A stretch of DNA of 45,848 nucleotides from an uncultured Legionellaceae bacterium (GCA_964525945.1 CAZGKX010000015.1:1-45848); one strand, 5' to 3'; positions 4,328 through 43,982 are shown, counted from the stretch's first letter. The notes: generated from the sequence alone by a model not told the origin. Numbers and translations: made by a program.

Positions 4328-4351
4328 ACCTCTCTTACGATCACAATTCAG

Positions 4352-5362: not shown

Positions 5363-6398
5363 CTGCAATCCTCAATAATTTTTTCGCATGACGATTCAAG
5401 AGATTGAAACTAAGTTTTAAATTCAATAAAGAAATAATGATAGCCGGTTCAGCAGTTGGACTGCGGCCCAATGATTTCACCAACGGCGGTAAAAACACGA
5501 TCGATGCGCTGGACACCACCGCGTATTTTTGATCCATGATCATCGAGGCAAATAACATTTCAAATTGTTGGTGAATAAGAACTAACTCATCTTGAGCAGG
5601 CTGCAGCAATTGTTGATTGTGACGGCATAACAAGTGGTAAGCATCGACCATCATCGCATAAGAATGCACCAACGCGTATTGTTCAAGTAAAAGATCGCTA
5701 ATTTGATTGCTTTGCTGACTGAATTCATCGCTTTGCTCTATAGCTTGATTGCTTTCCAACAAATACGTTAAAGTGTTTTTTATGCGTACAAACCCATATT
5801 TTTCAAACGCTTGTTCTTTCGACTGACCCGTTACGTATTGACGAAGCTCATGCATGCCTTGCGCCAAAGAACGAAAAATACGATTGGAATTCCACACAAA
5901 CAAACGGGGATAATTTTCGGGCAAAACGAAAATATTCACCATAGCCGATATGAATAAGGCTAAAATCAAGGCATAAATGTGCATCCAAATTTCTGCCGTG
6001 CTGTTGAAAGGCAGGATGGTTGCAAAAAAACAAAGGGTCCAAGCCATCATCGGCGCTACACTGGTTTGTAAACCAAAACGGCGGACATAATTTGCAACAA
6101 ACCCCATCATCACCAAAACAAGGCTGGTTCCTATTGCTGAATCACGCACCAACAAACCGAGTATAAACACTATAAAATAAGTCAAATCAAAGAGAACGAT
6201 TTGCTTGAGACGCGATGTAGAGGACTTCGCCACCACGCCCTGCATTGAAAAACCACATGCTAAACCCACCATGCCTTTTACAAAAATAGACTCTCCACGC
6301 ATTAACCACAATGCAATTAAAATTGCCAATATAGTTTTAAACGCGTGCTTTAATCGGAAATAACCGGGATCGATATCCCACAATTTATGCATGTTCAT
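5352..6398 (-). CDS. FUSC/ArAE-family (YccS-like) integral membrane protein, 'first half' type
   Basis: Has an N-terminal multi-TM region (LKHAFKTILAILIALWLM...) followed by a soluble helical domain. This matches the TM-plus-cytoplasmic-domain layout of one half of YccS/AaeB-type proteins. It overlaps the downstream gene by 11 nt. Confidence 0.55.
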   Translation of the reverse strand: MNMHKLWDIDPGYFRLKHAFKTILAILIALWLMRGESIFVKGMVGLACGFSMQGVVAKSSTSRLKQIVLFDLTYFIVFILGLLVRDSAIGTSLVLVMMGFVANYVRRFGLQTSVAPMMAWTLCFFATILPFNSTAEIWMHIYALILALFISAMVNIFVLPENYPRLFVWNSNRIFRSLAQGMHELRQYVTGQSKEQAFEKYGFVRIKNTLTYLLESNQAIEQSDEFSQQSNQISDLLLEQYALVHSYAMMVDAYHLLCRHNQQLLQPAQDELVLIHQQFEMLFASMIMDQKYAVVSSASIVFLPPLVKSLGRSPTAEPAIIISLLNLKLSFNLLNRHAKKLLRIADET

Positions 6399-6505
6399 GA
6401 CTGATTACCATGGCAAGCAGCGTCATTTCGTATTATCCTTAGGGGTTATAAATGGCACTCAAGCCCTAAATCATTATCCTATGTTTTATAAGATGATAGC
6501 AAATC

Positions 6506-7621
6506 ATGACTACAGCTGAATTCGTTCTTGATAAAAACAACCATTACTTGTGCAAAGGCAGCTGGTCTATTTTAAATTTAGGTGAATTATTTCAGCATTT
6601 TACAAACAGCCCTATGCCTTCCGCGCAAAAATTAATTATTGACGGTTCGCAGATAAAATTGTTTGACAGTGCTGGCGCCCTCACGTTGACGCAATGCTTG
6701 CACACGTTAAAAAAATACAACAACAACATTGAGTTAACGGGTTTCAATGAGCAACATCAAACGCTGCTCACATTAATTGATGAAAAACATGCTAATTTGG
6801 AGTACAAACCTCCTGCAACCACATCGCATGGTCCGCTGCATTTTTTAGGCAAAGAAACCGTACATAAACTCCATCAAATCGATGGATTGATTGTTTTAGT
6901 CGGCGACTTAACCGATAAATTGTTTGCTGCCATGGGGCAATGGCGTCGCTTCCAATTTCCAAGTATTGTTTCAAACATTGCCAGCACAGGACTCAAAGCA
7001 TTGCCTATCGTCGCCTTACTCTCTTTTCTTATCGGCGTCGTATTGGCTTATCAAATGGGATTGCAACTGGAAACGTATGGCGCCAGTATTTTTATTGCTT
7101 ATTTATCAGGCATGGCCATTTTTCGAGAATTTGCCCCGTTGATCACCGCAATCATTGTGGCAGGACGCACCAGCTCTGCATTTACAGCTCAAATCGGCAG
7201 CATGAAAATTAACGAAGAAATTGACGCGCTGTACACCATGGGGCTTTCTCCAACAGAATTGCTCGTGATTCCAAAAGTATTGGCGTTGCTGTTTATTTTT
7301 CCTTTGCTTATTTTTTGGTCGGATTTTTTCAGTATCTTAGGTGCGATGATCATGTCTAAAGCGATGCTCAATGTCGGTTATTATGATTTCTTGACGCGCT
7401 TACAAGATAGCGTGGGCCTAAAACAAATGATGTTGGGTTTGTACAAAGCACCAGCCTTCGCTTTGTTGATCGCATTGGTGGGTTGTTTTCAAGGGTTTCG
7501 TGTAGAAGCTAACGCGGATAGCGTGGGCAGTCAAACAACCCGAAGTGTTGTGCAAGCCTTATTCTTAATCATTGTGACGGATGCGACGTATTCCATCATT
7601 TACAGTTGGTTGGATCTTTAA
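6506..7621 (+). CDS. MlaE/YrbE-family ABC permease with a fused N-terminal STAS-like domain
   Basis: The C-terminal ~260 aa are a multi-TM permease with the MlaE-type EIDALYTMGLSP motif. The N-terminal ~100 aa are soluble and look like a STAS / anti-sigma-antagonist domain. It is the first gene of a four-gene operon. Confidence 0.85.
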   Translation: MTTAEFVLDKNNHYLCKGSWSILNLGELFQHFTNSPMPSAQKLIIDGSQIKLFDSAGALTLTQCLHTLKKYNNNIELTGFNEQHQTLLTLIDEKHANLEYKPPATTSHGPLHFLGKETVHKLHQIDGLIVLVGDLTDKLFAAMGQWRRFQFPSIVSNIASTGLKALPIVALLSFLIGVVLAYQMGLQLETYGASIFIAYLSGMAIFREFAPLITAIIVAGRTSSAFTAQIGSMKINEEIDALYTMGLSPTELLVIPKVLALLFIFPLLIFWSDFFSILGAMIMSKAMLNVGYYDFLTRLQDSVGLKQMMLGLYKAPAFALLIALVGCFQGFRVEANADSVGSQTTRSVVQALFLIIVTDATYSIIYSWLDL

Positions 7622-7623
7622 TC

Positions 7624-8361
7624 ATGAGCACCCCCATTATAGAGGTGGAAGGGTTAAAAAATTACTTGGGAAGCCAATGGGTCCATTCTGATGTAAATTT
7701 CTCAGTAAACAAAGGTGAGATTTTTGCCATTATCGGCGGTAGTGGTAGTGGTAAAACAACCGTGTTGCGCAGTTTGTTGATGCTACTCAAACCAACAGCG
7801 GGCACCATCCGCATATTTGGCCAAGACATTGCCTCTCTTGATGAGGCCGGTGCAAATGCGCTGCGCAGGCGTTGGGGGATGCTGTTTCAACACAGCGCGC
7901 TTTTTTCAGCAATGACGGTGTTGGAAAATATTATGTTTCCTATGCATGAATTGACCCTGCTTGATCAAAGTTTTATGCAAAAATTGGCGTTGTTGAAATT
8001 AGCATTGGTGGGTCTCCCCAACGAAGCAGGGAATAAATTTCCCTCAGAATTAAGTGGCGGAATGCAACGCCGTGCTGCCGCGGCACGAGCAATAGCCATG
8101 GATCCAGAACTGCTTTTTCTGGATGAGCCAACATCAGGGCTGGATCCATTGAGTGCAAAACAATTTGATCATTTAATTGTTTTTTTACGCGATACGCTAA
8201 ACTTGACCATTGTTATTGTCAGCCATGATATTGAGTCACTGAAACGCACCACAGACAGGGTGGCTTTTTTGGGCGAAGGTAAAGTATTAAGCGTGCAGCC
8301 AATCAACGAATTAATGAAAAATAAACACCCATTAATTGCTGATTATTTTAGCAAAATTTAA
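7624..8361 (+). CDS. ABC transporter ATP-binding protein (MlaF-like)
   Basis: Walker A GGSGSGKTT, ABC signature LSGGMQRR and Walker B LLFLDEPTSGLD are all present. The ATG at 7624 lies immediately after the permease stop. The track start at 7606 overlaps the permease. Confidence 0.9.
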   Translation: MSTPIIEVEGLKNYLGSQWVHSDVNFSVNKGEIFAIIGGSGSGKTTVLRSLLMLLKPTAGTIRIFGQDIASLDEAGANALRRRWGMLFQHSALFSAMTVLENIMFPMHELTLLDQSFMQKLALLKLALVGLPNEAGNKFPSELSGGMQRRAAAARAIAMDPELLFLDEPTSGLDPLSAKQFDHLIVFLRDTLNLTIVIVSHDIESLKRTTDRVAFLGEGKVLSVQPINELMKNKHPLIADYFSKI

Positions 8362-8378
8362 AACAGGGAGCACACAAT

Positions 8379-9245
8379 TTGGAATCAAAAACCAATTATA
8401 CGATTGTAGGCTTGATCGTATTACTTCTTGCCGCTGGATTATTAAGCGCTGGACTTTGGTTATCCATCGGATTTGACCAAAAAAAATACAACAGTTACAC
8501 CATTTACATGAGTGAAGCTGTATCAGGTTTAAATGAAGACTCCTTGGTCAAATACAACGGGGTAAAAGTCGGTTATATCAGCAAAATTACATTGAGCCAA
8601 TTTGATCCGCAACAAGTCAAAATTCAAGTGGAAATTGTGGAGGGCACTCCCATCACCACCAGCACGCATGCCACCCTCATCAATCAAGGCATTACAGGCA
8701 CGACCTACTTGGGATTATCCGCAACATCCTCAACGCTGACTCCGTTGCAACGGGTGGCTGGAGAACCGTACCCCATCATTCCTTATGAGCCCTCTTTTTT
8801 AAATCAATTGGAACAAAATGTGAATGATGTCAGTGTGGGCATAAAACGTGTGCTGAACGAAAAAAATGCGGCATATTTAAGCAGCTCCTTAGCGAATATG
8901 GAAAAAATCACTGAAATCATTGCCATTAACAATGCGAGCTTAGAAAAAAGTTTACGCGATCTGCCGTTGCTTATTAACGAACTTAAACACAGCGCCGTGC
9001 AATTTAGTAGCATGGCCGGAGAACTGTCTGCGGCGGGAACCCAAGTCATAACCACCATGAAAGCAGGCCGCAGCAGCATTGATAAACTATCCCAACAAGC
9101 TATCCCGCCGGCAGTCACGTTGTTACGCCGCTTAAATTTGATTGCTGCAAATCTTGAAAAAACCAGCGCACAATTGCGCCAAAATCCCGCCGTGCTCCTT
9201 CGAGGTTCGGCACCACCCAAACCGGGTCCCGGAGAAAAAAAATGA
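8379..9245 (+). CDS. MCE/MlaD-family substrate-binding protein (single N-terminal TM anchor)
   Basis: TTG start at 8379, about 8 nt downstream of AGGGAG. An N-terminal TM helix (IVGLIVLLLAAGLLSAGLWL) is followed by an MCE-domain-like region (VSGLNEDSLVKYNGVKVGYISKITL) and a helical C-terminus. Confidence 0.85.
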   Translation: MESKTNYTIVGLIVLLLAAGLLSAGLWLSIGFDQKKYNSYTIYMSEAVSGLNEDSLVKYNGVKVGYISKITLSQFDPQQVKIQVEIVEGTPITTSTHATLINQGITGTTYLGLSATSSTLTPLQRVAGEPYPIIPYEPSFLNQLEQNVNDVSVGIKRVLNEKNAAYLSSSLANMEKITEIIAINNASLEKSLRDLPLLINELKHSAVQFSSMAGELSAAGTQVITTMKAGRSSIDKLSQQAIPPAVTLLRRLNLIAANLEKTSAQLRQNPAVLLRGSAPPKPGPGEKK

Positions 9246-9856
9246 AGAACCTAAATTCGAAACGATGGCTACCTTTATGCGGCGCGCTTTTGATAGCCTG
9301 CTCACCCATTAAAACGCCGGTCAGTGATCAATACAAATTGGAATCATTTAGCACTAAAAAAATTGCTTTACAAAAGACCAAACAATCTTTATTGATATCG
9401 CAACCGGATGCCATGCCAGGTTATCAAACCGAACAAATGTTATACACTGATAAGCCTTACGAATTAAGCGTGTTTGCGCATAATGCGTGGATAAGTGCCC
9501 CGGCGAATATGCTATACCCCCTGATCATCCAGAGTTTGCAGTTAAATGATTATTTTTTTGCGGTTGCCAGTGGCCCTGATGCCGATACAACCGATTACCG
9601 GTTAGATACCCAGGTGATTGCTTTCCAGCAAAATTTTCTGACCAAACCAAGCACGTTGGAACTAACGGTGCAAGCCGTGTTAAATCATGTGAGCGACGGC
9701 CGAGTGGTTGCGTCCAAAATGTTTAAAGAACGGGTGCCTTGCCCTCAAGACACCCCCTACGGTGGGGTCATCGCTGCAAACCAGGCCGTGTATGCCTTTA
9801 CCGCTAAGCTAAACAGTTTTGTGATAAAGCACGTGCAACACGATACAGGCGCGTAA
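9242..9856 (+). CDS. ABC-type transport auxiliary lipoprotein (PqiC/YmbA, DUF330-like)
   Basis: ATGA overlap with the MCE gene. Lipoprotein signal with lipobox LLIAC. Size and position, as the last gene of an Mce-type operon, fit the PqiC-like family. Confidence 0.65.
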   Translation: MKNLNSKRWLPLCGALLIACSPIKTPVSDQYKLESFSTKKIALQKTKQSLLISQPDAMPGYQTEQMLYTDKPYELSVFAHNAWISAPANMLYPLIIQSLQLNDYFFAVASGPDADTTDYRLDTQVIAFQQNFLTKPSTLELTVQAVLNHVSDGRVVASKMFKERVPCPQDTPYGGVIAANQAVYAFTAKLNSFVIKHVQHDTGA

Positions 9857-9879
9857 CACCACAGCAACACGGCGCCAAT

Positions 9880-9908
9880 TTGATCAAAAAAACAAAAAAG
9901 TGTACAAT
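9880..9908 (+). promoter_or_regulatory. Candidate sigma70 promoter for paralog A
   Basis: TTGATC (9880-9885), a 17-nt spacer, then TACAAT (9903-9908), about 30 nt upstream of the TTG start at 9938. Confidence 0.4.
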
Positions 9909-9937
9909 ATCAGGAACATTTTACCTTAGGAACCATT

Positions 9938-11221
9938 TTGACGATCGTGTACACCGCAGGTTCACTGAGCTTAGAAAAAATGGACGACCTATGTTCTGAG
10001 CAAGGTTTAGATCCTAGCAAAGCTATTTTTTTATTCCCTGGTAACAATACCCATCACGATCCAGCCACAACATTGTTCTCCATCAAAGATGGCTCAGGTC
10101 TTGCCCGCTTGGCAACAAAAATCGGCAAAAATGGCGGCGCAGCACTGAGCATGCCCACCACCAACGTGTGGTTCGGCCTCCCTCTGCAGTTGGATTGGCC
10201 TGGCAATGCCAAAACAGCCACAATGGTTCAAGCCGCCATTGCCGATCTTTATCGAGCGTTGGGTGCAGGCTATTTTTTTATCTTGCCGGTGCGACCCCAT
10301 CAAGATCAAACATTTTTTAGCCACGGCTTGGCCATTACCAACGAAAAACAAGAGCCCAGTTTTTGGGGAGGGGCACAGCGAACGCCCAACAAAGCCTTGG
10401 CCGACCATTATATTGAAGCATTGGATAATTTTCAGGAATTTGCAGCTCTGCCATGGGCAGAACGACAAAAACGGGCCCATAACAATGCCTTTGATCATAA
10501 CTATGCAGCCTACCTGCAAGGTGCCCGCATGGATCACAACGATCCTTGGTTGCAACCGTCTCTACAAAGCCTATTTAAACAATTGGACACAAGCTTACAC
10601 AACCATCAAAAATTATGGGATCCGGCCTTGAACAAGGATCAAGAGGACATCCCCAGCGATAGCATGTCTGTAGACATGGACTATGATCAACAACTCAATC
10701 AGTTCATAGCCCATGTTCGCCACAATGCGTACCTCTTAGCACAGCCCATCCTCATTAAAACCTATTTTTGGCAAGAATTAACGGAAGAAGACGCCCAACG
10801 CCTGCAAACCATAAAATCCGTGCTTATCCATTGCAATACATTACTTGTGGTTGGCGCACTGCCGTTATGTGCCGTTGAATTGGCAAATTTGGCCGTTTTA
10901 ATTTCCAATGATGCATCCCCAGATTGGCAACACTTCGGGAAATTGTTAGGTGGTTTAGCGATAATAGCAGCCTTGGGCCTACTGGCCATCACTCCCTTTG
11001 GTGGCCCGAGCTTGGCCGTGCTTTGGGGAGCTGTCGTGTTTGAAAAAATTGCTGTGTTGGCGACCAGCGCATCCCTCATGGGCATCACAGCAGTTGCTGC
11101 TGGCCTGCTCGGCTTTTTTGCGCATCGGCACGGCACACAACCAACGATTTTGGCAAATTCGATAATGGATGTAACAGACCATTATGAAAACAATCCCAGT
11201 AACTTTTCAATTGAAATCTAA
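9938..11221 (+). CDS. Orphan protein, paralog A: conserved polar-motif N-terminal domain plus C-terminal hydrophobic hairpin (effector-like)
   Basis: TTG start preceded by AGGAA. It shares long identical blocks with the next gene: FLFPGNNTHH, LS(M/L)PTTN, AIAD(L/I)YRAxGAG, FILPVRPH, EPSFW, LADHY, NDPWL, CNTLL, LAITPxGGxSxAVxxGAVVFEK. Confidence 0.7.
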   Translation: MTIVYTAGSLSLEKMDDLCSEQGLDPSKAIFLFPGNNTHHDPATTLFSIKDGSGLARLATKIGKNGGAALSMPTTNVWFGLPLQLDWPGNAKTATMVQAAIADLYRALGAGYFFILPVRPHQDQTFFSHGLAITNEKQEPSFWGGAQRTPNKALADHYIEALDNFQEFAALPWAERQKRAHNNAFDHNYAAYLQGARMDHNDPWLQPSLQSLFKQLDTSLHNHQKLWDPALNKDQEDIPSDSMSVDMDYDQQLNQFIAHVRHNAYLLAQPILIKTYFWQELTEEDAQRLQTIKSVLIHCNTLLVVGALPLCAVELANLAVLISNDASPDWQHFGKLLGGLAIIAALGLLAITPFGGPSLAVLWGAVVFEKIAVLATSASLMGITAVAAGLLGFFAHRHGTQPTILANSIMDVTDHYENNPSNFSIEI

Positions 11222-11362
11222 GAGCAACGCTAATTTTAAAGTGCTATGGATTTATAATCTGAATCAAACACATTTTGGTCGTTTTTATTTCTGCTAAACA
11301 GAGAAAATATTGTCTATATAGACTATTATTTAGTCATAACATTGAAAAAAGCAGGAAATCTC

Positions 11363-12712
11363 ATGCCAATCATTTATGTTGAAGGGGCTTTGAGTGCAAA
11401 GCGAATTAAAGCCGTTTGTGACCAACATGGGCTTTCCCCCAAAAAAACAGTTTTTTTATTCCCCGGCAACAACACCCATCACCAAGAGAGCACGTTGTTT
11501 TCTTTAAAAACAGGTGGTGGTCTCGCCAATACAGCCGCTGAACATGGCACACTTGGCGGACCGACTCTTAGCTTACCCACCACCAATTTTAGCGTTTACG
11601 ATGGCGTCTTGGATTTTGAAGATGTGGACACTAAAGCCCTGGTGGAAAACGCCATTGCAGATATTTACCGTGCACATGGGGCTGGTTTTGATTTTATTCT
11701 GCCAGTACGTCCTCATGAATCCAGCGAGTATTTTACGAAAGGTTTCGATAACAACCCCAGCCTAGAACCTAGTTTTTGGAAAGGAATACAACGCACGTCC
11801 AATCTCTTGTTAGCCGATCACTACATGGCAGCCTTGGACCAATTCAACGCATTCACGGCCTTATCTCCCGCGGATCAATTGCAATTGGCCCAAAGCGACC
11901 CAGGCAATCCCTATTACCAAGCTTATTTGAAAGGGTTGAACCACGGCAATGATGACCCATGGCTAAGTTCCAATGACATGGCATTGTTTCAACGATTCCA
12001 AAAGACCATAGATGACAACCAATCCTTGTTGTTTGCTATCAAAACAGCAGGCCCCCAAAATAACGAGGATGTAACGGTATTTAACGACCGGTTACAATAT
12101 TTTCAACAACTCCTCAATTTTTCTCAAGAAATCTACAACGACGCATTGCTATGTATCGAGCCCATTTCACAAAAAATGGCAACGAACCAAAAATTAACGG
12201 CAGAAGAACACCAAAAACAGAAATTCTTACTGGAAATAATTTTTTCTTGCAATACCTTGTTGCAAAACCCCTCATTGCAGAATGCCCGTAACTTGGAAAT
12301 ATGGGGTGAAAAGCTTGCCATGTCTGAATCGGAAAATTGGGAGAAATTGAGTCAGTCATTGATAGGATTAGCGGTTGTAGCCACCGTTGGCATCCTTGCC
12401 ATTACCCCTATTGGCGGGACAAGCGTAGCCGTTTTTTTAGGCGCGGTGGTGTTTGAAAAGGCAGCGATCGTCACGGCCAGTTTTGCCATCTTAGCTGCAG
12501 CAGCATTCATTTCAAGCATTGGCAGTTGTTTTGCGTATTACCATGCCCTACAGCCTATGGATGGCGTGGCAAAATCCGCGATGGATGCGGCTCAACATTA
12601 TGATGGACCATCAAGTCGATTTTTTACTGCGGCAAGGCAATTGGCTCAGCCTGTTGCGATAAATCAATCCAAAATGGAACCGAAGACGTCGTTTGATCCA
12701 AAACCATCGTAA
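11363..12712 (+). CDS. Orphan protein, paralog B of 9938-11221
   Basis: The ATG at 11363 (MPIIYVEG, aligning with MTIVYTAG of paralog A) is preceded by GCAGGAA. The track start at 11342 is a TTG seven codons upstream. It has the same motif set and the same C-terminal two-helix hydrophobic region as paralog A. Confidence 0.7.
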   Translation: MPIIYVEGALSAKRIKAVCDQHGLSPKKTVFLFPGNNTHHQESTLFSLKTGGGLANTAAEHGTLGGPTLSLPTTNFSVYDGVLDFEDVDTKALVENAIADIYRAHGAGFDFILPVRPHESSEYFTKGFDNNPSLEPSFWKGIQRTSNLLLADHYMAALDQFNAFTALSPADQLQLAQSDPGNPYYQAYLKGLNHGNDDPWLSSNDMALFQRFQKTIDDNQSLLFAIKTAGPQNNEDVTVFNDRLQYFQQLLNFSQEIYNDALLCIEPISQKMATNQKLTAEEHQKQKFLLEIIFSCNTLLQNPSLQNARNLEIWGEKLAMSESENWEKLSQSLIGLAVVATVGILAITPIGGTSVAVFLGAVVFEKAAIVTASFAILAAAAFISSIGSCFAYYHALQPMDGVAKSAMDAAQHYDGPSSRFFTAARQLAQPVAINQSKMEPKTSFDPKPS

Positions 12713-12860: not shown

Positions 12861-13319
12861 TCAATAAATAATTTTATTCGAATAATTTGCAATTGGGTGA
12901 TGTGTTTTAAACGCATGCCCACCCGATATAGCCACCGCTCCTGCAGTCACCCAAGCATGTACCGCACGTTCTTCATTGTGTGACTTATTTTTATCGACAC
13001 CAATGAAAAAGAAATAAGGAATCCCGTAATGATTGCACCAAAACTTGGCAACCAAAGCTTGGGTTAAACAACTGGAATTCCAAGGTGTGCTGCGAGACGC
13101 TAAACCAATGGTTTGTTGTAAGAAAAGCGCTTGTTGGTGTTGTTGAGAAGAAATCACCGTAGAAGCAATAAGCATACCGCAGGAACGCCCAAAAGACCTG
13201 GCAAGGCAAGAGTAGGGTAAAATCTGAATGAGTGCTTTAAAAAAGCCGCACAAAAGAACGTTAATTGCAAATAAAGATTTTTTTTTGGTCCTCATGCGCC
13301 AAACAGTGAGCCGTTTCAT
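12861..13319 (-). CDS. Lasso-peptide 'B2'-type transglutaminase-like cysteine protease homolog
   Basis: The C-terminal region SSCLTQALVAKFWCNHYGIPYFFFIGVD...ERAVHAWVTAG matches the McjB C-terminal / B2 pattern: a catalytic Cys, then xGV, then a His in HAWV. Its ATG overlaps the PqqD stop (ATGA). Confidence 0.7.
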   Translation of the reverse strand: MKRLTVWRMRTKKKSLFAINVLLCGFFKALIQILPYSCLARSFGRSCGMLIASTVISSQQHQQALFLQQTIGLASRSTPWNSSCLTQALVAKFWCNHYGIPYFFFIGVDKNKSHNEERAVHAWVTAGAVAISGGHAFKTHHPIANYSNKIIY

Positions 13320-13594
13320 TTAAGCACCAACAACCCTTTTTTAACAGCATCTTGCACCCATTCCCAAATGTCATGTTGGTACACAGGCGGGGGTTCAAGG
13401 TATTTTTGTGCGAAAATTTGGCTGAGTTCTTCCAAAGTTTTAGCCGTTTCTAAGGCGAGCCATAACTCCACCGCAGATTCATTAAGGTGGTAAAAATTTT
13501 CATTGACGGAACTTAAAAGGATCACTTCGTCAAGGTCAATTTGCGTAAAACACACATGGGGATGTCGTTCAATCAATACGCACATGTTGCTCAT
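13316..13594 (-). CDS. PqqD-family peptide-binding protein (RRE / lasso 'B1'-like)
   Basis: DLDEVILLSSVNENFYHLNESAVELWLAL...TLEELSQIFAQKY......IWEWVQDAVKKGLL is the typical PqqD-family pattern. The ATG at 13594 lies 1 nt after the kinase stop (13596-13598). The track start at 13645 lies inside the kinase gene. Confidence 0.7.
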   Translation of the reverse strand: MSNMCVLIERHPHVCFTQIDLDEVILLSSVNENFYHLNESAVELWLALETAKTLEELSQIFAQKYLEPPPVYQHDIWEWVQDAVKKGLLVLK

Positions 13595-13595
13595 A

Positions 13596-14444
13596 CTAAA
13601 ACTCCAGATTTGATTCAATGCATTGCACAAGTTTGGACAAATCATGAAAATAATTGTTTCTTGTCAGTTTATAAACGTTTATTTGTTGGGACAATGCCGT
13701 GCAATGGTGCAAAAAAAATGGCAGTTTTCCGAGCGGCTTTAACATAAAATACCGATACACATTTTGCATCACCGTTTTTAAAGCAGATGCTCCATTCAAT
13801 CCCTCGCAATGAGCGGTGGACACATGTTCATCAATGTTTATCTCATAAAAGGCGTGTACAGGTACATCTGTGAATGGACAATGCGTGTCAACAGGGAGGA
13901 CGTGCTTGTTGGTTTTAAATGCAATTTTTTCCATTTTTTTCATGTCATGTTGAAAAAAACACAAAGAGTCTTTCCACAATTTTAATTGAGGTGGGCCGGG
14001 CACAATACAATATTGCCCTTGATCATTGTAACGAATAACCACGAGATCATCGGTGATCAAAGGGTAGCCTTTTTGAACAAAAGCGTCTGCCAAGGTGGAT
14101 TTTCCTGCACCTGAGCGCCCGCTAAAAACGATAGCGGTATTGTTTATGAGCACCGCGGAGCCATGTAGAACCAAATATCCCTGGCATTGTAAAAGATAAG
14201 CCAATACCGCGCCTGGCATCCAAAACCTTAAGCTGTTGGTTTGCAACAGAGAGAGATTGGCTTCAATCGTCACCTGATTTTTAGTGGGTAGAGCAAGAAA
14301 ACAACCAAAGTCAGGAATGCTTAAATAGAAATACTTCGGTGTCACTTTGCACCGAAAAGCAGGCTTTAAGCCTCGCTGATGCAGCGTAGCAGGACGCCAC
14401 ACCGCTTGTATTTTTAGGCCAAAACACTCCAACAATGGATTCAT
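13596..14444 (-). CDS. HPr-kinase-C-terminal-like P-loop protein (putative peptide/protein Ser kinase)
   Basis: LHGSAVLINNTAIVFSGRSGAGKSTLADAFVQKGYPLITDDLVVI parallels HprK (HGVLV..GVGVLITGESGIGKSE.ALELI.RGH.LVADD). The ATG at 14444 lies 2 nt after the propeller stop (14447-14449). Confidence 0.7.
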   Translation of the reverse strand: MNPLLECFGLKIQAVWRPATLHQRGLKPAFRCKVTPKYFYLSIPDFGCFLALPTKNQVTIEANLSLLQTNSLRFWMPGAVLAYLLQCQGYLVLHGSAVLINNTAIVFSGRSGAGKSTLADAFVQKGYPLITDDLVVIRYNDQGQYCIVPGPPQLKLWKDSLCFFQHDMKKMEKIAFKTNKHVLPVDTHCPFTDVPVHAFYEINIDEHVSTAHCEGLNGASALKTVMQNVYRYFMLKPLGKLPFFLHHCTALSQQINVYKLTRNNYFHDLSKLVQCIESNLEF

Positions 14445-14446
14445 CT

Positions 14447-15706
14447 CTAAAAAGCATACATATAAAAAGGACCGCTGAAATCCGTACCCGTGGAGGCACA
14501 ATTTGAAAGTGCACCATTCACCATACTCACTGTGCATTTGGTGATCGTGCTGTCCCCGAGGTTGGTAACGTACGCATACCCTCTGTTGATCATAATCCCC
14601 CGCACACCATTGAAACCTTCACCAGTCAGAACACAATCCGATAAAGCACCGCTCACATTGTCAATGGCACATTTGGAAACGGAATGTTCACCGGCATTGG
14701 TAATGTATGCATAACCATCGCTTATCGCGATACTTCTAGGAAAAGAAAAACCACTTCCCGTCAGGCTACAACTGGTCAATGAACCATCCGTTGGATCCAC
14801 TGCACATTGAGTGACCGTGCTGTCATTGTTGACTACATACGCATAATTTTTATTAAACGCAACCGCGTAAGGATCATAAAATAACTCGCCTGTAGGTGTA
14901 CATTCTAAAAAATCACCGGTGGCGGCACTTACTGTGCATTTGTCAATGGTTGTATCATTGGCATTGACAACATACGCATAACGACCATTCAGCATCATTC
15001 CTCGAGGAAAATCAAACCCACTGCTGATGGTCGTACAACTTGAAAAAGAACCATCCAAGGCACTGACCAAACACCGAGACACAGAGCCTAATGTAATGCT
15101 TACTGCGTACGCGTAATAATTATTTAAAGCAATACCTCGAAGACTGGTAAGCCCTGTCGCGGTATAAACACAAGCCGATAATGTGCCATTAGAAGGCTCA
15201 ATGACACATTGAGAAATATTACCGTTTGTGCTGTTGGTGATGTATGCAAATTGAGGAGAGCAAGGCTCTGGGTTTGCAATCCAATCCACCGATTTCGATT
15301 GATTTGATGTGCACTGCGTGCCCGTGCAGGTAATGTCTGTAAAGCTTTGGCATGACACACCTTTTGAGGAAGGGTTTCCTCCATTCACATACAGTTTCAT
15401 GCAGGCAATGTTTGTTGTTGTTATGCCTTGATTGTTTGCTAATTGATACAGGGAGCTTGCGTTGATTCGCACGGATTGTCCACTGGTAAAAGACATTCCT
15501 GATACATTGTCTAATGCGGAAGCTGCGCCTAAAAGCGCGGTGCAATCGGAATCACTGTAAAAAAACGCTTGTAAAAAATGAATACTCCCTTCACCGGTAA
15601 TGATCAATTGTCCACCATTGTTTGAAAGCGCATTTTGAGTGGTTGAGCCAGACATTAAAAGATTGTAAAGCGCTATCGGGTGTGCTTGGAGAAATGTGGC
15701 ATGCAT
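14447..15706 (-). CDS. Six-repeat YVTN-type beta-propeller protein with a conserved Cys pair per blade and a ~150-aa Cys-rich N-terminal region
   Basis: Six units of about 45 aa: (F/Y)AY(I/V)(T/V)N..(5-6)..(I/V)(S/T)xCx(I/V)......G.(L/F)..C...G.GF..PRG(I/M). A terminal FYMYAF strand could close the ring. No convincing signal peptide follows the ATG at 15706. Confidence 0.75.
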   Translation of the reverse strand: MHATFLQAHPIALYNLLMSGSTTQNALSNNGGQLIITGEGSIHFLQAFFYSDSDCTALLGAASALDNVSGMSFTSGQSVRINASSLYQLANNQGITTTNIACMKLYVNGGNPSSKGVSCQSFTDITCTGTQCTSNQSKSVDWIANPEPCSPQFAYITNSTNGNISQCVIEPSNGTLSACVYTATGLTSLRGIALNNYYAYAVSITLGSVSRCLVSALDGSFSSCTTISSGFDFPRGMMLNGRYAYVVNANDTTIDKCTVSAATGDFLECTPTGELFYDPYAVAFNKNYAYVVNNDSTVTQCAVDPTDGSLTSCSLTGSGFSFPRSIAISDGYAYITNAGEHSVSKCAIDNVSGALSDCVLTGEGFNGVRGIMINRGYAYVTNLGDSTITKCTVSMVNGALSNCASTGTDFSGPFYMYAF

Positions 15707-15783
15707 TGCACATCCGACAAAGCAACATTTCCTAAGAATTTTTTGAAAAAAATAGATTTGCGTTTGTGCATCTTGTTTCGTCC

Positions 15784-15936
15784 TTTAACTCAAAACGCCA
15801 CTATTGCTTTCTGGCATCGATTGAGTGCCGCCTTCAATTTTTTTAGGGTCGAGAAATAACGAGGTTTGAGGTTTTTGGTAGGTCGGCTTTGATTCTGGCG
15901 TTGCATCGTTGATTGGTTTTTGAGGGACATCCATCA
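15784..15936 (-). CDS. Unannotated 50-aa ORF (below the track cutoff); speculative precursor-peptide candidate
   Basis: Hand translation: MMDVPQKPINDATPESKPTYQKPQTSLFLDPKKIEGGTQSMPESNSGVLS, then TAA. AGGA lies 3-6 nt before the tandem ATGs. The ORF sits 77 nt upstream of, and co-oriented with, the propeller/kinase/PqqD/B2 genes. There is no homology evidence. Confidence 0.25.
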
Positions 15937-16108
15937 TGCATCCTAAATTTTTTTATTGAAAATAAACCATAAAATGATAAATAAAACAAGTGGATATGCC
16001 TCGGAAACTTCAATAGAGCCCCTAATTCATATTGGACATCGAAAAAATGTTTATAAATAACAATTGCATATCACGACAAAGTCCGACTGCCATATCCGGC
16101 AATATTAA

Positions 16109-16169: not shown

Positions 16170-19100
16170 ATGACGGCTGGATATACGAAAGAAAAAAATA
16201 TCAAGGGGATTCGCGTACGAGTAACCTATCAAGGCTGTGATTTTGTTTGTCGCTCCAAACCTCCAAAAGCAGGGCAACTTCATACCATTCTTACTGTGTC
16301 CAATGCCGCTTATGTTCGGTGTGGAACACAACTTTTTTATATCAACAAAGCCAAAAATATTTTGGTGGAATTACCGCTTCATCAGGAGTTTGATAACGTT
16401 ATCCACCCAGAAGGACGTTACCATGAAAAAAACAACCCTCAAGGTTTGTCGATCAATGAGCCAAAAGCATTAACAGCCGCACAAATTCAATGGATACAAA
16501 ACAATGTCCCACACAGCTCTCCTGGCAGCGACGATATCCGCAACATAGAACTGGCTCTTACCCGCAAACAACGGCAAAAGCTTTTGAGAAAACTTCCCAA
16601 TCGCAATGTTGATTCAAAAAATGCTGCTTATACGTATATTTTTCAAACCACCGTGGCGAAGTACCACGCGGATGTCAGCCAAGAAAAATTAAAGCACCAA
16701 ACGGCTATTCGCAAATTAAAACAAGAATTAAAACGGCTAGAATCACTAGGTGATAACAGCGAACAACAACAAAAATTAGACGATGAAATACAGTTGATTC
16801 GACATAAGGCTAAAACCTTAAAACCCATGCAGTCTTGGATGACCCGCGTGCATCGCTTATCCACCCATTTTGCTCGATTCGAGCGCTTTATTAACAACCC
16901 TCCTGATGCCAATCCAACGGAAAGTCTTAACAACCTTTTAGACGCCGTTGAACACTATAAAACAAACATTTTAACGACCGTAAAAAAACTGCAAGAGCAC
17001 TACCAACACCACGCAGAAATATTAGAGCATCTTGAACAACTGCATAATCAGTTGGAAAACGATGCCGACGCATTTAAAAACGAGATTAAAACAGTGCTTC
17101 AAAAGGGGGTGACCTCCTTTCAAGCGAAACGATTGATGTGCATACAAGATTTAGGCGATGTTCATCAATCATTGGGTGCATTTATGGCCGAACAGATGAG
17201 CACTGTTCTAGACACCAGCATAAAAATTGCGTATGAAATCAATGATGATCGCCTGGGGGATTTGGTTCACTTGTCTCCAGCCATTGCAGCACTGTCTGAT
17301 GCTAAAAAAACCATTGAAATAAAGGCCTTTACGTTAGACGGCGCGGAATACAACAACACGTACAACGCCATCCCAGAGTCCATGCTAGATGTGATTGAAG
17401 GCGATGAAGAAATCCCCAAAAGCTCCAAAAAATGGTTTTCCATGAAGCCATACCTGCACGACTGGAACCCTCTGGAGCTGGACAAGGTACTCTGTTTGGC
17501 GACCAATCAACCCCTTTCTCAACGAGAAACGCCCAGTTTTATAATAGGACTGGTAAAAGTTATCGCCAGTTTCGTGGAAGCAGGCCTTGTTTTAACCATT
17601 CGCTTGCCCATCACGATTATTTTGTCGATTGTGGCGTTATTAGGGGCTGCTAATTGGGCCAGTCAAATCGATCTTTGGATTGCGCGTTGGCATAACAGTT
17701 TATCGCCTGTTAAAGCTGCAAAGCGGTGGTGGAATCACAATTATCGTAGGCTTGATCAAGAAGGGGAACTTGTCGATGATGAGGAGCCACATCAGGCTCT
17801 ACTCAACGCCGGCATGAAAACGTCCAGTTTCTTTCATCAGGTGTTTGTCTATGTTTCTCCGCAACGCATTGCCGATTCAATCAAATCATTTGCATCAACG
17901 TTCATAGCAAACATCATTAAAATTCCCCAAGATTTCTCCTATTTGGTTTCAGGTTTTTATTACACAGACAAGCCCGAGGAAGTTTACGAAAAAACAAAGT
18001 GGATTTATCAACTCACCAAATTGTATCGAAAACAACTCGAAGACGCCCATCACAAAAAATACCAGGCGCTCAAAGCCAAGCATGCCCGTCAACCTTTAGA
18101 ATTAGAAGAATACGAGGCACTTCGTTATTGTGATATCAATGAAATAGCCTCCCCCCTCGAAGTGTTCCGTGAAGTCATGGTCACCCTCTCAGATGTGGTC
18201 ATTGATCCAATGTTTCGAAAATCACCCGGGGCCGCCACCTTCTTTTTTATGCTTTCAATGGCCACGTTCGGAACTTATTTGGCCCCAGCTGCCGCACTTG
18301 CTTGGATGAAATCAGTCCCTGCTTGGTTACAAATCCCCACCAATATCTTAAGTCTGCATTTCACGGGCAAAGCAACCTCGTTGGGGGTGCAGGAACAAAT
18401 GATTGCGTGCTTTTTAGAATGGAAATTGGGGTTTTTCACGAGCGAATTATTGATTGAAATCCACCATGAAAATTACGAAATTTTTAACGATCTCTTTCAA
18501 GAACCCGAAAAATTAACGTTGGGCTTGGTGGGATTGATTGCCATGGGAGCCTCCATCCAATATTTACCCCTGCTGCCAACGACAATTATTATCCCAGGCC
18601 TACCCCCCGTTTATAATTATTATGCAGAAGTTTTAAACGTTTTTATTGATGAAGCCAAAGGCTGCGCTGAAGGCACCATTCCATTTACTGGGGTTGAATA
18701 CGGCTTTTTAGGGTTGAAATTTGCCATGTTGATGCACTCCATGCACGCGGGGTGGCATGAAGAAGAAGAAAAAACCACGACCCAACAATTGGCTCAAATC
18801 TGCAGCGAAACGACATTTTTAGCACGATTGCTCAAATCGTGTGTCGCAAGCAAGCTGCTTAAAGAAACCAATGAAGCCAAACGTAATGAACGTTTTCAAC
18901 GCTTGCTCAATGTTATTTTACAAGAAACGCTGCGTTCTAAAAAATTGGAAAGCAATTTTACCGATGCAGAATTGACGGCATTTCGCCTGGCCTTAACCGA
19001 GCAAATATCCCCTGCACTCGAACAATTTTTAGCCAATAAAACACAAGAAGATATCGCAGAAGCGCAAAATAAGTTACTGGACAGCGAACATCCCGAAGAA

Positions 19101-20180
19101 AAAATGCGCAAATTGTTGGTTGCTCATGATCCACAACACGCATCTAAGACCCAATCCAACCGTTATCCTTTGGAAAAGGCCCATCGTGAATTGACTGAGG
19201 CCATCGAAATGGCGAGCGATGAAAAAACACCTTTGGTCTTTGCATCAGATCGCTTAAAAGAAGCCAATAAATTCTATGACCATTTGGATCATTTATTTAA
19301 TCAATACAACCACGAATTACAAAAAAGGGGTCGGGCCGATCTATGCGTTGATAAACGGGATTTTATGGCGCAATTTTACAATAAATATTGTTACCAAGGC
19401 AGTAACAATTTGTTGCGTTCGCTGATTTTCTTTCCCATTCCGTTGCCTGTGCCACCTTATGTGGTACCACTTTATGCCATCATCGTCCTTTTTCGGGAAA
19501 TCAAACGGTTATTTGCACAATTGTTCCATAAACCTTCCATTGAACATCAAGTTGAGAAAAGTTACAGCAAGGATCTGGTCTTGCTGTACCAATTTGCTGC
19601 CATTATTGCCAGAACATTGTATGCGTTTAACCGAGCCATTAGTTATTCTTTACGAGCCATTACGGGAATCACCTTATTCGCAGTAGCGGTTGTGCCTTTC
19701 AGTTTCTACAAAGGCATTGCAGCGTTGGCACAGATGCGTCAAGATGTTTCTTGGTCTACTTTTTTTAAAACCATTGATAAGCTAGTGTCTTCGATCTCTT
19801 TGCACCGCGCCTTTTCCATCCGTTTTGCTCGCCCACTTTACGCGCGCGCAGCTCGTGACGCGGGTACCATTGCCAACGTCGGGGATGAAGGTGAGCGCCT
19901 GCTGCGGCAATTAACCGCAGCCGAACCGATATTACACGCCCAGGTGCACAGCAAACGCTACCAACGTCCTTACATAGACTCCCATACGCTTGTCGGACAG
20001 CGCATGGAATTGGCTGATCGAAAACGGGCTCAAAAACCAGCTTTAATTTTGGCAACCCCTAACAACGTGAAAACAGAAACTATGCCAATAGCACCAAGAG
20101 GAACTGGACCCATGTTTAAAACGGTGAAAGAAATTCCATCAACAGCAAGCAGCTTTCAACCCATATCGGTGACGCAATAA
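16170..20180 (+). CDS. 1336-aa orphan protein: N-terminal coiled-coil region, then multiple hydrophobic/TM segments (effector-like or envelope protein)
   Basis: A long uninterrupted ORF with coiled-coil stretches (KLKHQTAIRKLKQELKRLESL, LQEHYQHHAEILEHLEQLHNQLEND) and several TM-like runs (IIGLVKVIASFVEAGLVLTIRLPITIILSIVALLGAA; FFFMLSMATFGTYLAPAAALAW; LGLVGLIAMGASIQYLPLL; VPLYAIIVLF; ITGITLFAVAVVPFSF). I recognise no enzymatic motif. Confidence 0.8.
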   Translation: MTAGYTKEKNIKGIRVRVTYQGCDFVCRSKPPKAGQLHTILTVSNAAYVRCGTQLFYINKAKNILVELPLHQEFDNVIHPEGRYHEKNNPQGLSINEPKALTAAQIQWIQNNVPHSSPGSDDIRNIELALTRKQRQKLLRKLPNRNVDSKNAAYTYIFQTTVAKYHADVSQEKLKHQTAIRKLKQELKRLESLGDNSEQQQKLDDEIQLIRHKAKTLKPMQSWMTRVHRLSTHFARFERFINNPPDANPTESLNNLLDAVEHYKTNILTTVKKLQEHYQHHAEILEHLEQLHNQLENDADAFKNEIKTVLQKGVTSFQAKRLMCIQDLGDVHQSLGAFMAEQMSTVLDTSIKIAYEINDDRLGDLVHLSPAIAALSDAKKTIEIKAFTLDGAEYNNTYNAIPESMLDVIEGDEEIPKSSKKWFSMKPYLHDWNPLELDKVLCLATNQPLSQRETPSFIIGLVKVIASFVEAGLVLTIRLPITIILSIVALLGAANWASQIDLWIARWHNSLSPVKAAKRWWNHNYRRLDQEGELVDDEEPHQALLNAGMKTSSFFHQVFVYVSPQRIADSIKSFASTFIANIIKIPQDFSYLVSGFYYTDKPEEVYEKTKWIYQLTKLYRKQLEDAHHKKYQALKAKHARQPLELEEYEALRYCDINEIASPLEVFREVMVTLSDVVIDPMFRKSPGAATFFFMLSMATFGTYLAPAAALAWMKSVPAWLQIPTNILSLHFTGKATSLGVQEQMIACFLEWKLGFFTSELLIEIHHENYEIFNDLFQEPEKLTLGLVGLIAMGASIQYLPLLPTTIIIPGLPPVYNYYAEVLNVFIDEAKGCAEGTIPFTGVEYGFLGLKFAMLMHSMHAGWHEEEEKTTTQQLAQICSETTFLARLLKSCVASKLLKETNEAKRNERFQRLLNVILQETLRSKKLESNFTDAELTAFRLALTEQISPALEQFLANKTQEDIAEAQNKLLDSEHPEEKMRKLLVAHDPQHASKTQSNRYPLEKAHRELTEAIEMASDEKTPLVFASDRLKEANKFYDHLDHLFNQYNHELQKRGRADLCVDKRDFMAQFYNKYCYQGSNNLLRSLIFFPIPLPVPPYVVPLYAIIVLFREIKRLFAQLFHKPSIEHQVEKSYSKDLVLLYQFAAIIARTLYAFNRAISYSLRAITGITLFAVAVVPFSFYKGIAALAQMRQDVSWSTFFKTIDKLVSSISLHRAFSIRFARPLYARAARDAGTIANVGDEGERLLRQLTAAEPILHAQVHSKRYQRPYIDSHTLVGQRMELADRKRAQKPALILATPNNVKTETMPIAPRGTGPMFKTVKEIPSTASSFQPISVTQ

Positions 20181-43589: not shown

Positions 43590-43982
43590 ACATGTTACCG
43601 AAAATGTTTCTTTCGTCATGTAGCTCTAGCCGTCCATAAAATGGATGAGTGCGAGGACACAATACCTAAAATTTCATTTGTTAAGCAACGCTCAGACAAA
43701 ACCTTGAAAAAAATGGCAGCTGGCTTGAAAGAGCATGAACTCAGTGAAAGCATTCACGTTGATTTTGAGCTTTATAACGAACAAGAGCCTCCGAAGAAGT
43801 TTTGCGTCCTCGGGTAAGTGGTACTGTAATTTATCCAATTGTCTTTATTTTTACATTTCTGTTTTCAAGACCTATACTTTTGCTAAAGAGTTTACGTTAA
43901 TGCTCACTGCAAAGACCAACTAATATAATAGATGGACCTGACCTCGACAACTCTTCTTTAAAGGGCCCAAGTAAGGATACGC

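Follow-up and report, generated by a model that had tools for sequence, protein, structure and literature searches.

A probable partial phosphorylated lasso peptide cluster beside a beta-propeller gene in an uncultured Legionellaceae bacterium

The closest described systems to the locus analysed here are lasso peptide clusters that include a kinase. Clusters of the paeninodin type, found in Paenibacillus dendritiformis (padeK/A/C/B1/B2/D) and in proteobacteria such as Sphingobium yanoikuyae, encode a cyclase (C) and an ABC exporter (D) together with an HPr-kinase-like protein (K), a split B1/B2 pair and a precursor (A) ending in Ser. In these systems, HPr-kinase homologues act on the linear precursor and add the phosphate to its C-terminal Ser before the peptide folds (PMC8498205). 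In the bsf cluster of Bradymonas sediminis (Duan et al. 2023, PMC10368454), B1 works with two enzymes, speeding up the kinase and aiding B2. In phosphorylated lasso precursors, YxxPxL and Ile(-2) serve in recognition, and the bsf kinase, BsfK, shares less than 21% identity with other lasso kinases (PMC10368454). The literature we searched contains no description of lasso clusters of Legionellales and only remarks on those of other amoeba symbionts (PMC8831229); a paper on RiPP mining in Bacteroidales has nothing on kinase or lasso variants.

Here, we analysed a 45.8-kb stretch of DNA (the window) from an uncultured Legionellaceae bacterium, which is one whole contig of an incomplete metagenome-assembled genome (MAG). 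Five tightly packed genes on its minus strand (12861-15937), operon-like and in the order A-X-K-B1-B2 (Table 1), probably represent a partial member of the paeninodin/Bsf-type phosphorylated lasso family in Legionellales, either decaying or dependent on functions supplied in trans.

Gene content of the cassette

An initial annotation had described four minus-strand genes here, and both the junctions and the protein families it gave were borne out by ORF reading and profile searches. The propeller stop (TAG, 14449-14447) and the kinase ATG (14444) are 2 nt apart, the kinase stop (13598-13596) and the PqqD ATG (13594) are 1 nt apart, and the B2 ATG (13319) overlaps the PqqD stop as ATGA, with B2 ending at 12861. 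However, the count is five rather than four. Positions 15707-15936 had been taken as propeller coding sequence, but a stop occurs at 15787-15785 and the readable propeller ORF starts only at the ATG at 15706; the 50-aa precursor ORF at 15785-15937 had been overlooked. This fifth gene changes how the cassette is to be interpreted. A promoter and terminator scan gave nothing useful on the operon boundaries of the cassette.

Table 1. Features of the cassette, with positions counted from the first letter of the window.
Feature	Position	Strand	Remarks
Precursor gene A	15785..15937	-	50 aa; AGGA 3 nt upstream of ATG; gene call in public collections
Leader, 35 aa	15833..15937	-	YQKP = Tyr(-16)-x-x-Pro(-13), plus Ile(-2)
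Predicted core GGTQSMPESNSGVLS	15788..15832	-	Putative Gly1-Glu8 ring acceptor pair, 7-residue tail, C-terminal Ser15
Degenerate propeller 5' end	15707..15771	-	Holds T7/A6 run
Partner protein X, 419 aa as readable	14447..15706	-	N-terminal beta-sandwich + six-bladed YVTN/YWTD-like beta-propeller
HPr-kinase-like peptide kinase K, 282 aa	13596..14444	-	Hpr_kinase_C, HprK_rel_A matches
PqqD-type RRE B1, 92 aa	13316..13594	-	PF05402
Lasso leader peptidase B2, 152 aa	12861..13319	-	Transglutaminase-like Cys protease

The three proposed protein families (PqqD, Transglut_core3/lasso-B2 and Hpr_kinase_C) all scored above their cut-offs in profile searches, and the kinase, B1 and B2 together are indeed the accessory set of paeninodin-type lasso clusters. 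The kinase matches Hpr_kinase_C just above the cut-off (2e-8; 34.4 bits vs 33.3), has HprK_rel_A as its best NCBIfam match (3.3e-10) and carries the precomputed label ScmC + Hpr_kinase_C. Its residues H94-G109-G112-G114-K115-S116-D132-D133 are invariant across 36 homologues. They form the H...G..G.GKS...DD motif of phosphorylated-lasso kinases, with the same spacing as the catalytic H148-G163-G166-G168-K169-S170-D186-D187 of BsfK (PMC10368454). When genome contigs were scanned with the kinase alignment, P-loop matches were dominant, and three close relatives were found. B1 covers all 67 positions of the PF05402 profile (2.7e-11; 44 bits vs a cut-off of 23.4) and is 48-53% identical to the PqqD genes downstream of the kinase in four loci from relatives (L001, L003, L006 and L068). 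B2 matches Transglut_core3 (9.3e-17) and the NF033537 lasso_biosyn_B2 model (4.4e-15; 56 bits vs a cut-off of 33). Its Cys/His motifs are intact, as the initial annotation had noted, and both Cys84 (TPWxxxCL) and His121 (HAW) are invariant when 9 sequences of the family are aligned.

The precursor (49 aa if the second ATG, at 15934, is taken as the start) consists of the leader MMDVPQKPINDATPESKPTYQKPQTSLFLDPKKIE followed by the core GGTQSMPESNSGVLS, and has the Y(-16), P(-13), I(-2), G1 and E8 of a lasso precursor. Its homologues are small ORFs adjoining the kinase or the cyclase in L001, L003, L006, L068 and L078. This family comprises 44 peptides, and all but one (43/44) have the C-terminal Ser that acts as hydroxyl acceptor in the paeninodin type. 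The alignment of these 44 peptides has invariant columns for Y, P, T, L and G, and conservation reaches at least 90% for K, L, F, I(-2), E8, S9 and another G. All of the members that were parsed (39/39) have the Tyr of YxxP at -17 or -16, and the core pattern [G/S]-x6-E followed by a tail of 7-12 residues occurs in 39/44. A ring between Gly1 and Glu8 would fit this pattern. By analogy with paeninodin, phosphorylation would most likely be on the C-terminal Ser15, although Ser9, with a conservation of at least 90%, is a further candidate. A metagenome scan that used the peptide alignment retrieved three loci, of which one was a duplicate.

X has a Pfam match to the 7-bladed lactonase propeller (2.4e-7). 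Its AlphaFold model (pLDDT 92.4, pTM 0.91) predicts an N-terminal beta-sandwich and a propeller of six four-stranded blades, with six repeat units of about 43 residues within residues 153-418. There are 18 cysteines; six are in the N-domain (about residues 30-145), and each blade has a pair. The top Foldseek matches are the YWTD propellers of LRP6/LRP4 and the archaeal YVTN propeller 1l0q (probability 1.00 for both), as well as 6-phosphogluconolactonases. The N-domain, modelled alone and searched against the PDB, had no significant match (best E 8.7e-3, TM about 0.25).

We found 74 homologues of X, most of them from Legionellales/Coxiellaceae MAGs. Of 26 homologues, 23 have a hydrophobic segment at the N-terminus (10-residue mean KD of 2.0 or higher) and are predicted to be exported proteins with signal peptides; the window X reaches a mean KD of only 1.36 as called and 1.64 with a 1-nt correction, suggesting that its signal peptide has been lost. 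The degenerate 5' end of the gene starts with an ATG at 15771, 13 nt past the precursor stop, which is out of frame and 65 nt before the ATG at 15706. Its counterpart in L006 is the propeller start, 10 nt past the precursor stop. The apparent frameshift falls within the T7/A6 run and may be an artefact of the assembly.

In relatives, the partner protein is instead a small secreted protein or an RCC1 lipoprotein where the propeller is lacking, and an exported partner gene adjoins the precursor in nearly every complete locus. Within a six-sequence database, the N-domain of X showed weak homology to the 177-189 aa secreted proteins of propeller-less clusters (E about 1e-4 to that of L077), and no match to the secreted-protein family of L001/L068/L074. 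This exported partner protein encoded beside the precursor is the new element of the Legionellales family, and a notable unexplained feature; no comparable lasso accessory gene is described in the literature searched.

The missing cyclase and the loci of relatives

The initial annotation was correct that the window holds no lasso cyclase: tBLASTn with a relative's cyclase gave no match, and an HMM of six cyclases gave a best E of 0.67 against all six-frame segments. The Asn-synthetase-like macrolactam cyclase of a lasso cluster is thus absent from the 45.8-kb window. A remnant of the cyclase 3' end was looked for in the 460 nt upstream of the precursor, but protein and DNA alignments against L006, L001, L066 and L068 gave only noise. 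Likewise, neither an S8 protease nor a remnant of one was found in the window. There is also no ABC exporter beside the cassette, as had been stated; the nearest is 25 kb away (40793-42574). This exporter is 40% identical to the cluster-linked exporter of L001 and was considered as a relocated D gene, but was rejected since it lies among unrelated genes and is matched by generic exporter models only. The cyclase may be encoded elsewhere in the genome, outside this contig of an incomplete MAG.

The order propeller-kinase-PqqD-B2 is kept in L006 and L066/67, and partly in L078. L006, from another Legionellaceae MAG, reads C-A-propeller-K-B1-B2-S8, the same gene order as in the window cassette, and its genes are 47-59% identical to those of the window. 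A cyclase is also found beside the kinase cassette in L001, L068, L073, L075 and L077. The best match of these cyclases is the NF033535 lasso cyclase model (1e-40 to 1e-73, under its strict cut-off). In gene content, conserved residues and synteny with these cyclase-bearing loci, the window cassette belongs to the same family. The initial annotation had not recognised the cyclase-less architecture as a described one, but in the orthologous loci the cyclase directly adjoins a canonical precursor and the same genes, and hence the window holds a trimmed version of a known pathway rather than a new one.

Other relatives are also reduced. In L066/67, the cyclase is cut down to its final 54 codons, which adjoin an IS element, and a 7-nt repeat puts the precursor ATG out of frame. 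An S8 protease gene follows B2 or B1 in L001, L006, L066, L074 and L076, while shorter versions consist of A-K-B1 (L003), K-B1-S8 (L076), B2...K (L007) or K alone (L069, L008). The NXI01 MAG (GCA_024742995.1) has two complete clusters (L001 and L077) as well as a cyclase-less A-propeller-K-B1 cassette (L078). The leaders of the L078 precursors resemble that of L001, and L078 also has a minus-strand precursor-X pair with no maturation enzyme alongside.

Decay, a distant cyclase or a linear product

On balance, we favour the explanation that A-X-K-B1-B2 is a partial copy of the Legionellales phosphorylated lasso cluster family, most likely caught in decay. By analogy with the characterised systems, B1 would bind the YQKP-containing leader and hand the precursor to the kinase, which would phosphorylate a Ser (Ser15 being the likeliest), and to B2, which would cut after Ile(-2)-Glu(-1). 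The product of the genes present would then be GGTQSMPESNSGVLS. In relatives, the next step would be closure of the Gly1-Glu8 macrolactam by the Asn-synthetase-like cyclase encoded immediately upstream of the precursor, a gene that the window contig does not have. We infer decay because the cyclase and the S8 protease are absent and X, for all its 18 cysteines, lacks a signal peptide; such a copy would yield at most a linear phosphopeptide. L066/67 directly shows the loss of a cyclase at an IS element, which supports this reading. On the other hand, the genes for A, K, B1 and B2 are intact, as is X in its mature part, every invariant or nearly invariant family residue and the tight junctions are kept, and in the NXI01 MAG a cyclase-less cassette exists alongside two complete clusters. 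As these genes are unlike long-standing pseudogenes, decay would have to be recent, or the cassette is still used.

Rather less probable, though still the strongest alternative, is a split cluster, in which the cassette is functional and its precursor is cyclised by a cyclase encoded elsewhere, such as in an additional, complete cluster of this family, giving an ordinary phosphorylated lasso peptide. The window is just one contig of the MAG, its enzyme genes are all intact with their conserved residues, and GCA_024742995.1 offers a precedent, with complete clusters alongside L078 and its L001-like leaders. However, the cyclase adjoins the cassette in every complete locus seen, and the lost signal peptide of X and the missing S8 protease also speak against this reading.

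It is also conceivable, but in our view unlikely, that the precursor and the exported partner are a functional pair that is kept with or without a cyclase. The partner could then work in the periplasm or outside the cell as a binder, receptor or immunity protein for the phosphopeptide, and cyclase-less cassettes would make a linear phosphopeptide with its own role in amoeba-associated bacteria.

Similarly unlikely is an evolved cyclase-independent pathway, whose functional product would be the leader-cleaved, C-terminally phosphorylated linear 15-mer, possibly acting with X. Such kinases do act on linear precursors (PMC8498205), cyclase-less cassettes with intact A, K and B1 occur in separate lineages (the window, L078 and L003), and the minus-strand pair of L078 shows precursor and X without an adjacent maturation enzyme. 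But Gly1, Glu8 and Ile(-2) are kept as in cyclase-linked relatives and have no obvious role in a linear peptide, and the L066 cyclase was lost through an IS insertion. Furthermore, the remaining genes differ among the cyclase-less loci, a pattern more readily explained by random loss than by a distinct new arrangement. The linear Ser-phosphopeptide suggested by the initial annotation is therefore a possible output of the genes present when no cyclase acts in trans, but nothing marks it as an evolved product.

Finally, the suggestion that the enzymes modify the co-translated propeller protein is close to refuted, and chemical replacement of the cyclase by the propeller or the kinase is highly improbable: both have only the tight gene packing in their favour, whereas a dedicated YxxP precursor with an RRE-recognition motif and a C-terminal Ser lies immediately upstream and makes a propeller substrate unnecessary, the propeller homologues appear exported and disulfide-rich and lack both a C-terminal Ser and a YxxP leader, the model of X has no nucleotide-binding or ATP-grasp-like domain, and L006 has both propeller and cyclase, which shows that the one is no replacement for the other.

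Returning to the partial, probably decaying cluster, the locus places an uncharacterised kinase-containing lasso peptide family in Legionellales. The lasso clusters of this order are mobile and are eroding piecemeal, and hence comparative evidence is needed before a cassette without a cyclase is taken for a new pathway. If the pairing of a linear phosphopeptide with a partner protein were true, lasso-type RiPPs would gain a new class of accessory, and lasso machinery would have a natural output that is not a lasso.

Comparison with known systems

With paeninodin-type clusters, the window shares the HPr-kinase-like K, the split B1/B2 and a precursor ending in Ser. It differs in having neither C nor D, in the residue at -2 (Ile rather than the Thr of paeninodin-type precursors) and in encoding X, whereas those clusters have no exported partner protein. 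The bsf cluster is likewise a proteobacterial kinase-containing lasso cluster, and has in common with the window Ile(-2), YxxP and an 8-residue ring from Gly1 (predicted for the window peptide). However, BsfA has Asp at its C-terminal end, is phosphorylated at Ser3 and uses Asp8 as ring acceptor, while the window precursor has a terminal Ser and Glu8; unlike the window, the bsf cluster also has C, N and D genes (PMC10368454).

Two other systems show partial resemblance. Pairs of an HprK-related kinase and a PqqD protein are known from HprK_rel_A (TIGR04352) and SynChlorMet ScmC/ScmD; HprK_rel_A and HprK_rel_B are the best NCBIfam matches of the window kinase, and ScmD is among the PqqD matches. 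Yet the window scores far under the cut-offs of these families (39.5 vs 200 bits), has no radical-SAM/SPASM maturase and has lasso genes as neighbours. The lasso isopeptidases (AtxE2 and the sphingopyxin isopeptidase) are also beta-propeller proteins within a lasso cluster, but they are of the prolyl-oligopeptidase type, with the propeller fused to a serine-hydrolase domain. X has no such S9-type hydrolase domain in either the Pfam search or the model, and isopeptidases are absent from its top 50 structural matches.

The nearest likeness is with the Legionellales loci L006, L001, L068, L075 and L077, which share the precursor family and have a K-B1-B2 block at 41-56% identity; in L006 and L066, the propeller gene is in the same position as in the window. 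These loci differ in having the cyclase beside the precursor and partner proteins with signal peptides, and they often add an S8 protease, an ABC exporter or an NTP_transf_5 nucleotidyltransferase.

Gene cassette and precursor peptide

The initial annotation had described four packed minus-strand genes, and this arrangement stands: the propeller and kinase genes are 2 nt apart, the kinase and PqqD genes 1 nt apart, and the PqqD and protease genes overlap at ATGA. Its family assignments were backed by profile searches. The protease (B2) exceeded the cut-offs of both Transglut_core3 (9.3e-17) and NCBIfam lasso_biosyn_B2 (4.4e-15), B1 matched PqqD (2.7e-11), the propeller protein (X) matched the 7-bladed lactonase propeller family (2.4e-7), and the kinase was barely over the cut-off of Hpr_kinase_C (2e-8; top NCBIfam model HprK_rel_A). 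Judging by their conserved residues, the kinase and B2 look active. The kinase keeps H94, G109, G112, G114, K115, S116, D132 and D133, invariant across 36 homologues, with exactly the H...G..G.GKS...DD spacing of BsfK from the phosphorylated lasso system of Bradymonas sediminis, whose catalytic motif is mutationally validated (PMC10368454). In B2, Cys84 and His121 are kept, both in invariant alignment columns.

The four-gene description overlooked a fifth gene and misplaced the propeller boundary. The interval up to 15936 had been read as propeller, but there is a stop codon at 15787-15785 with a separate ORF upstream of it, already annotated as a gene by public gene callers. On sequence grounds, this ORF and its family have the anatomy of a lasso precursor. 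Homologous small ORFs adjoin the kinase or cyclase in every well-preserved related locus, and a profile search gathered 44 such peptides. Tyr, Pro, Thr, Leu and one Gly are invariant among them, and the penultimate leader Ile, core Glu8 and the Ser directly after it are at least 90% conserved. Leader Tyr sits at -17 or -16, the C-terminal residue is Ser in 43/44, and 39/44 match Y-x-x-P-x-T-x-x-F-L ... [I/V]-x, followed by the core [G/S]-x6-E and a tail of 7-12 residues. In published systems, a YxxP(xL) leader motif is recognised by B1, an Ile(-2) variant is specific to phosphorylated lasso peptides, and an 8-residue ring starts from Gly1 (PMC10368454); in paeninodin-type clusters, HPr-kinase homologues modify a C-terminal Ser (PMC8498205).

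In homologous systems, B1 stimulates the kinase, and B1 and B2 take off the leader (PMC10368454, PMC8498205). By analogy, B1 would bind the precursor leader, the kinase, stimulated by B1, would phosphorylate the linear precursor, and B1 and B2 would remove the leader; ring closure would need a cyclase, which is absent from the window.

Features of the window and gene content of related loci (A, precursor; K, kinase; C, lasso cyclase; S8, S8 protease gene; ABC, ABC exporter)
Locus	Feature or gene order	Positions	Strand	Remarks
Window	A	15785-15937	minus	50 aa; AGGA 3 nt before ATG; MMDVPQKPINDATPESKPTYQKPQTSLFLDPKKIEGGTQSMPESNSGVLS
Window	X, beta-propeller protein	14447-15706	minus	419 aa
Window	K	13596-14444	minus	282 aa
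Window	B1, PqqD RRE	13316-13594	minus	92 aa
Window	B2, protease	12861-13319	minus	152 aa
Window	Tandem paralogues	9938-11221, 11342-12712		427 and 456 aa; similar N-termini, hydrophobic C-terminal stretches
Window	Gene on other flank of cassette	16170-20180		1336 aa
Window	ABC	40793-42574		Neighbours: GDSL lipase, P-loop kinase with DUF4440
Window	Last 2.2 kb	43600-45848		Very few ORFs of at least 70 aa
L006, Legionellaceae MAG	Recombinase, C, A, propeller, K, B1, B2, S8
L001, MAG GCA_024742995.1	ABC, C, secreted protein, A, K, B1, B2, S8	8983-9516 (secreted protein)		177 aa
L068, GCA_027326085.1	C, A, secreted protein, K, B1, B2	9453-10013 (secreted protein)		186 aa
L072/L073, JGI metagenome contigs	C, A, secreted protein, K
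L074	Secreted protein	302-862
L075, GCA_013572825.1	A, RCC1-repeat lipoprotein, C, K, B1, B2, ABC	4638-7998 (A, lipoprotein)
L077, GCA_024742995.1	PqqD with precursor-like tail, secreted protein, C, K, B2	7394-7831 (PqqD protein)		Secreted protein 189 aa
L066/67, closest kinase relative	A, propeller, K, B1, B2, S8	L066:8160-8640 = L067:4230-4710 (cyclase remnant region)
L078, third locus of GCA_024742995.1	Two divergent precursor-propeller pairs, one then a divergent K and B1	1342-5773		53 + 458 aa, 61 + 451 aa; no B2, no C; truncated ABC membrane-domain gene close by
L003	A, K, B1 only
L076	K, B1, S8
L007	B2 and K, unrelated genes between
L069, L008	K alone

No cyclase in the window; cyclases of related loci

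The earlier observation that the window holds no cyclase was borne out. Neither a relative's cyclase nor its S8 protease gave a tblastn match in the 45.8-kb window (one entire 45,848-bp MAG contig), unfiltered HMMs of six cyclases and four S8 proteases returned only noise from all its six-frame segments (best E 0.67 and 0.46), and no cyclase 3'-end remnant was found in the 460 nt upstream of the precursor. Likewise, no ABC exporter lies near the cassette, the sole one of the window being 25 kb off among unrelated genes; it shares 40% identity over 557 residues with the L001 lasso-cluster exporter. The cassette is flanked by Mla transporter genes, pal, cpoB, housekeeping genes, two paralogous orphan genes and a 1336-aa orphan. 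These three orphan products had no Pfam match; they might be effectors or secreted proteins particular to the lineage. The last 2.2 kb are either a gene running off the contig end or non-coding, and the whole window yielded neither a tRNA nor an Rfam family.

For the kinase there are 472 homologues; those nearest to it share about 50% identity and derive almost exclusively from MAGs of Legionellales, Coxiellaceae or unclassified Gammaproteobacteria. We compared 14 distinct related loci. An adjacent lasso-type cyclase is present in L006, L001, L068, L072/L073, L075 and L077, and no usable one in L066/67, L078, L003, L076, L007, L069 and L008. L006 has the same gene order as the window (47-59% identity) but with a cyclase adjacent. 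For all the adjacent cyclases, the top NCBIfam model was the lasso isopeptide-bond cyclase (1e-40 to 1e-73, under the strict cut-off). In L066/67, the cyclase is reduced to its last 54 codons (72% identity to the L001 cyclase) upstream of the precursor, abutting an IS element, and 1.5 kb beyond there is another, different gene resembling a lasso cyclase. In L066, additional copies of the 7-nt repeat CAGCAAC put the precursor ATG (8435) in a different frame from the remainder of its ORF (8443-8634), which could be decay or phase variation. Identical lengths of the longest contigs hint at four further cases in which a kinase gene may adjoin a propeller gene; two of these would lie on contigs as short as 2.1-2.5 kb.

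In L077, beside the cyclase, kinase and B2, there is a PqqD-domain protein of 145 aa whose C-terminus (…AYQAPTLENFTVLDNVADGDGNINESLSGDGLLMS, then stop) resembles a lasso leader and core, having YxxPxL and Ser as its last residue; the protein looks like a fusion of B1 and precursor.

The partner protein

X was modelled by AlphaFold with 27 homologues and high confidence (pLDDT 92.4, pTM 0.91): a beta-sandwich at the N-terminus, spanning roughly residues 30-145, precedes a propeller of six blades. Among known structures, the model comes closest to the YWTD propellers of LRP6/LRP4, to an archaeal YVTN propeller and to 6-phosphogluconolactonases. The propeller had been called Cys-paired, correctly, since each blade has one Cys pair 12 residues apart; the N-domain holds six of the 18 Cys. 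No structural relative of this domain was found in the PDB, and it resembles the small secreted proteins of related loci only marginally.

A hydrophobic N-terminal segment (mean KD at least 2.0) is present in 23/26 X homologues, against 1.36 in the window. An ATG at 15771, positioned like the L006 propeller start, misses the propeller frame by one base, with a T7/A6 run in between, and the frame-corrected reading from it reaches a mean KD of only 1.64. X has lost the signal peptide of its homologues, and an 18-Cys protein without an export signal is unlikely to fold.

An exported-protein gene flanks the precursor in almost every complete locus, in three forms: the beta-sandwich and propeller protein (window, L006, L066 and, twice, L078), a secreted Cys-containing protein of 177-189 aa (L001, L068, L072-74, L077), and the RCC1-propeller lipoprotein (L075). 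The secreted proteins of 177-186 aa (L001, L068, L074), encoded beside the precursor in clusters without the propeller, form a family with about 40% mutual identity and a C-terminal CGW…TWTP. In L075, the gene after a 54-aa precursor-like ORF (YQVPRL…SGDTQQILESQGGIYDS) encodes a lipoprotein of 1068 aa that has an LAGC lipobox and RCC1 propeller repeats, so that a different propeller family takes the precursor-adjacent position. Our guess is that X binds the mature peptide as an immunity protein, carrier or receptor.

Origin of the cassette and its setting

The initial annotation proposed a separate architecture, to be given up if orthologous loci had a lasso cyclase and a canonical precursor next to them, and they do. 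The cassette is an incomplete version of clusters from a lasso family: locally cyclase-less, as described, but a trimmed member of that family rather than a pathway of its own. We favour recent decay, which seems somewhat probable. Cyclase loss is visible in L066, the family contains many fragments, its clusters sit amid recombinases, IS elements and toxin-antitoxin genes, and the window also lacks the S8 gene and the signal peptide of X; against this, none of A, K, B1, B2 and mature X is disrupted, and every conserved residue is present. That the cluster is split and a cyclase acts in trans is plausible because one MAG (GCA_024742995.1) has two complete clusters and a cyclase-less cassette, although we consider it rather unlikely here. 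An evolved linear phosphopeptide pathway is improbable, given that the precursor retains Gly1, Glu8 and Ile(-2) and that gene loss is irregular among relatives. Modification of the propeller itself, as once suggested, or a propeller in place of the cyclase is close to excluded, as L006 carries both and X homologues are exported.

We found no description of lasso clusters in Legionellales in the literature. The interest of the locus rests on this lineage and on the partner protein, not on the absence of a cyclase. For other amoeba symbionts, a possible link of lasso clusters to the host has been remarked on (PMC8831229); new here is the regular pairing of precursor and exported-protein genes.
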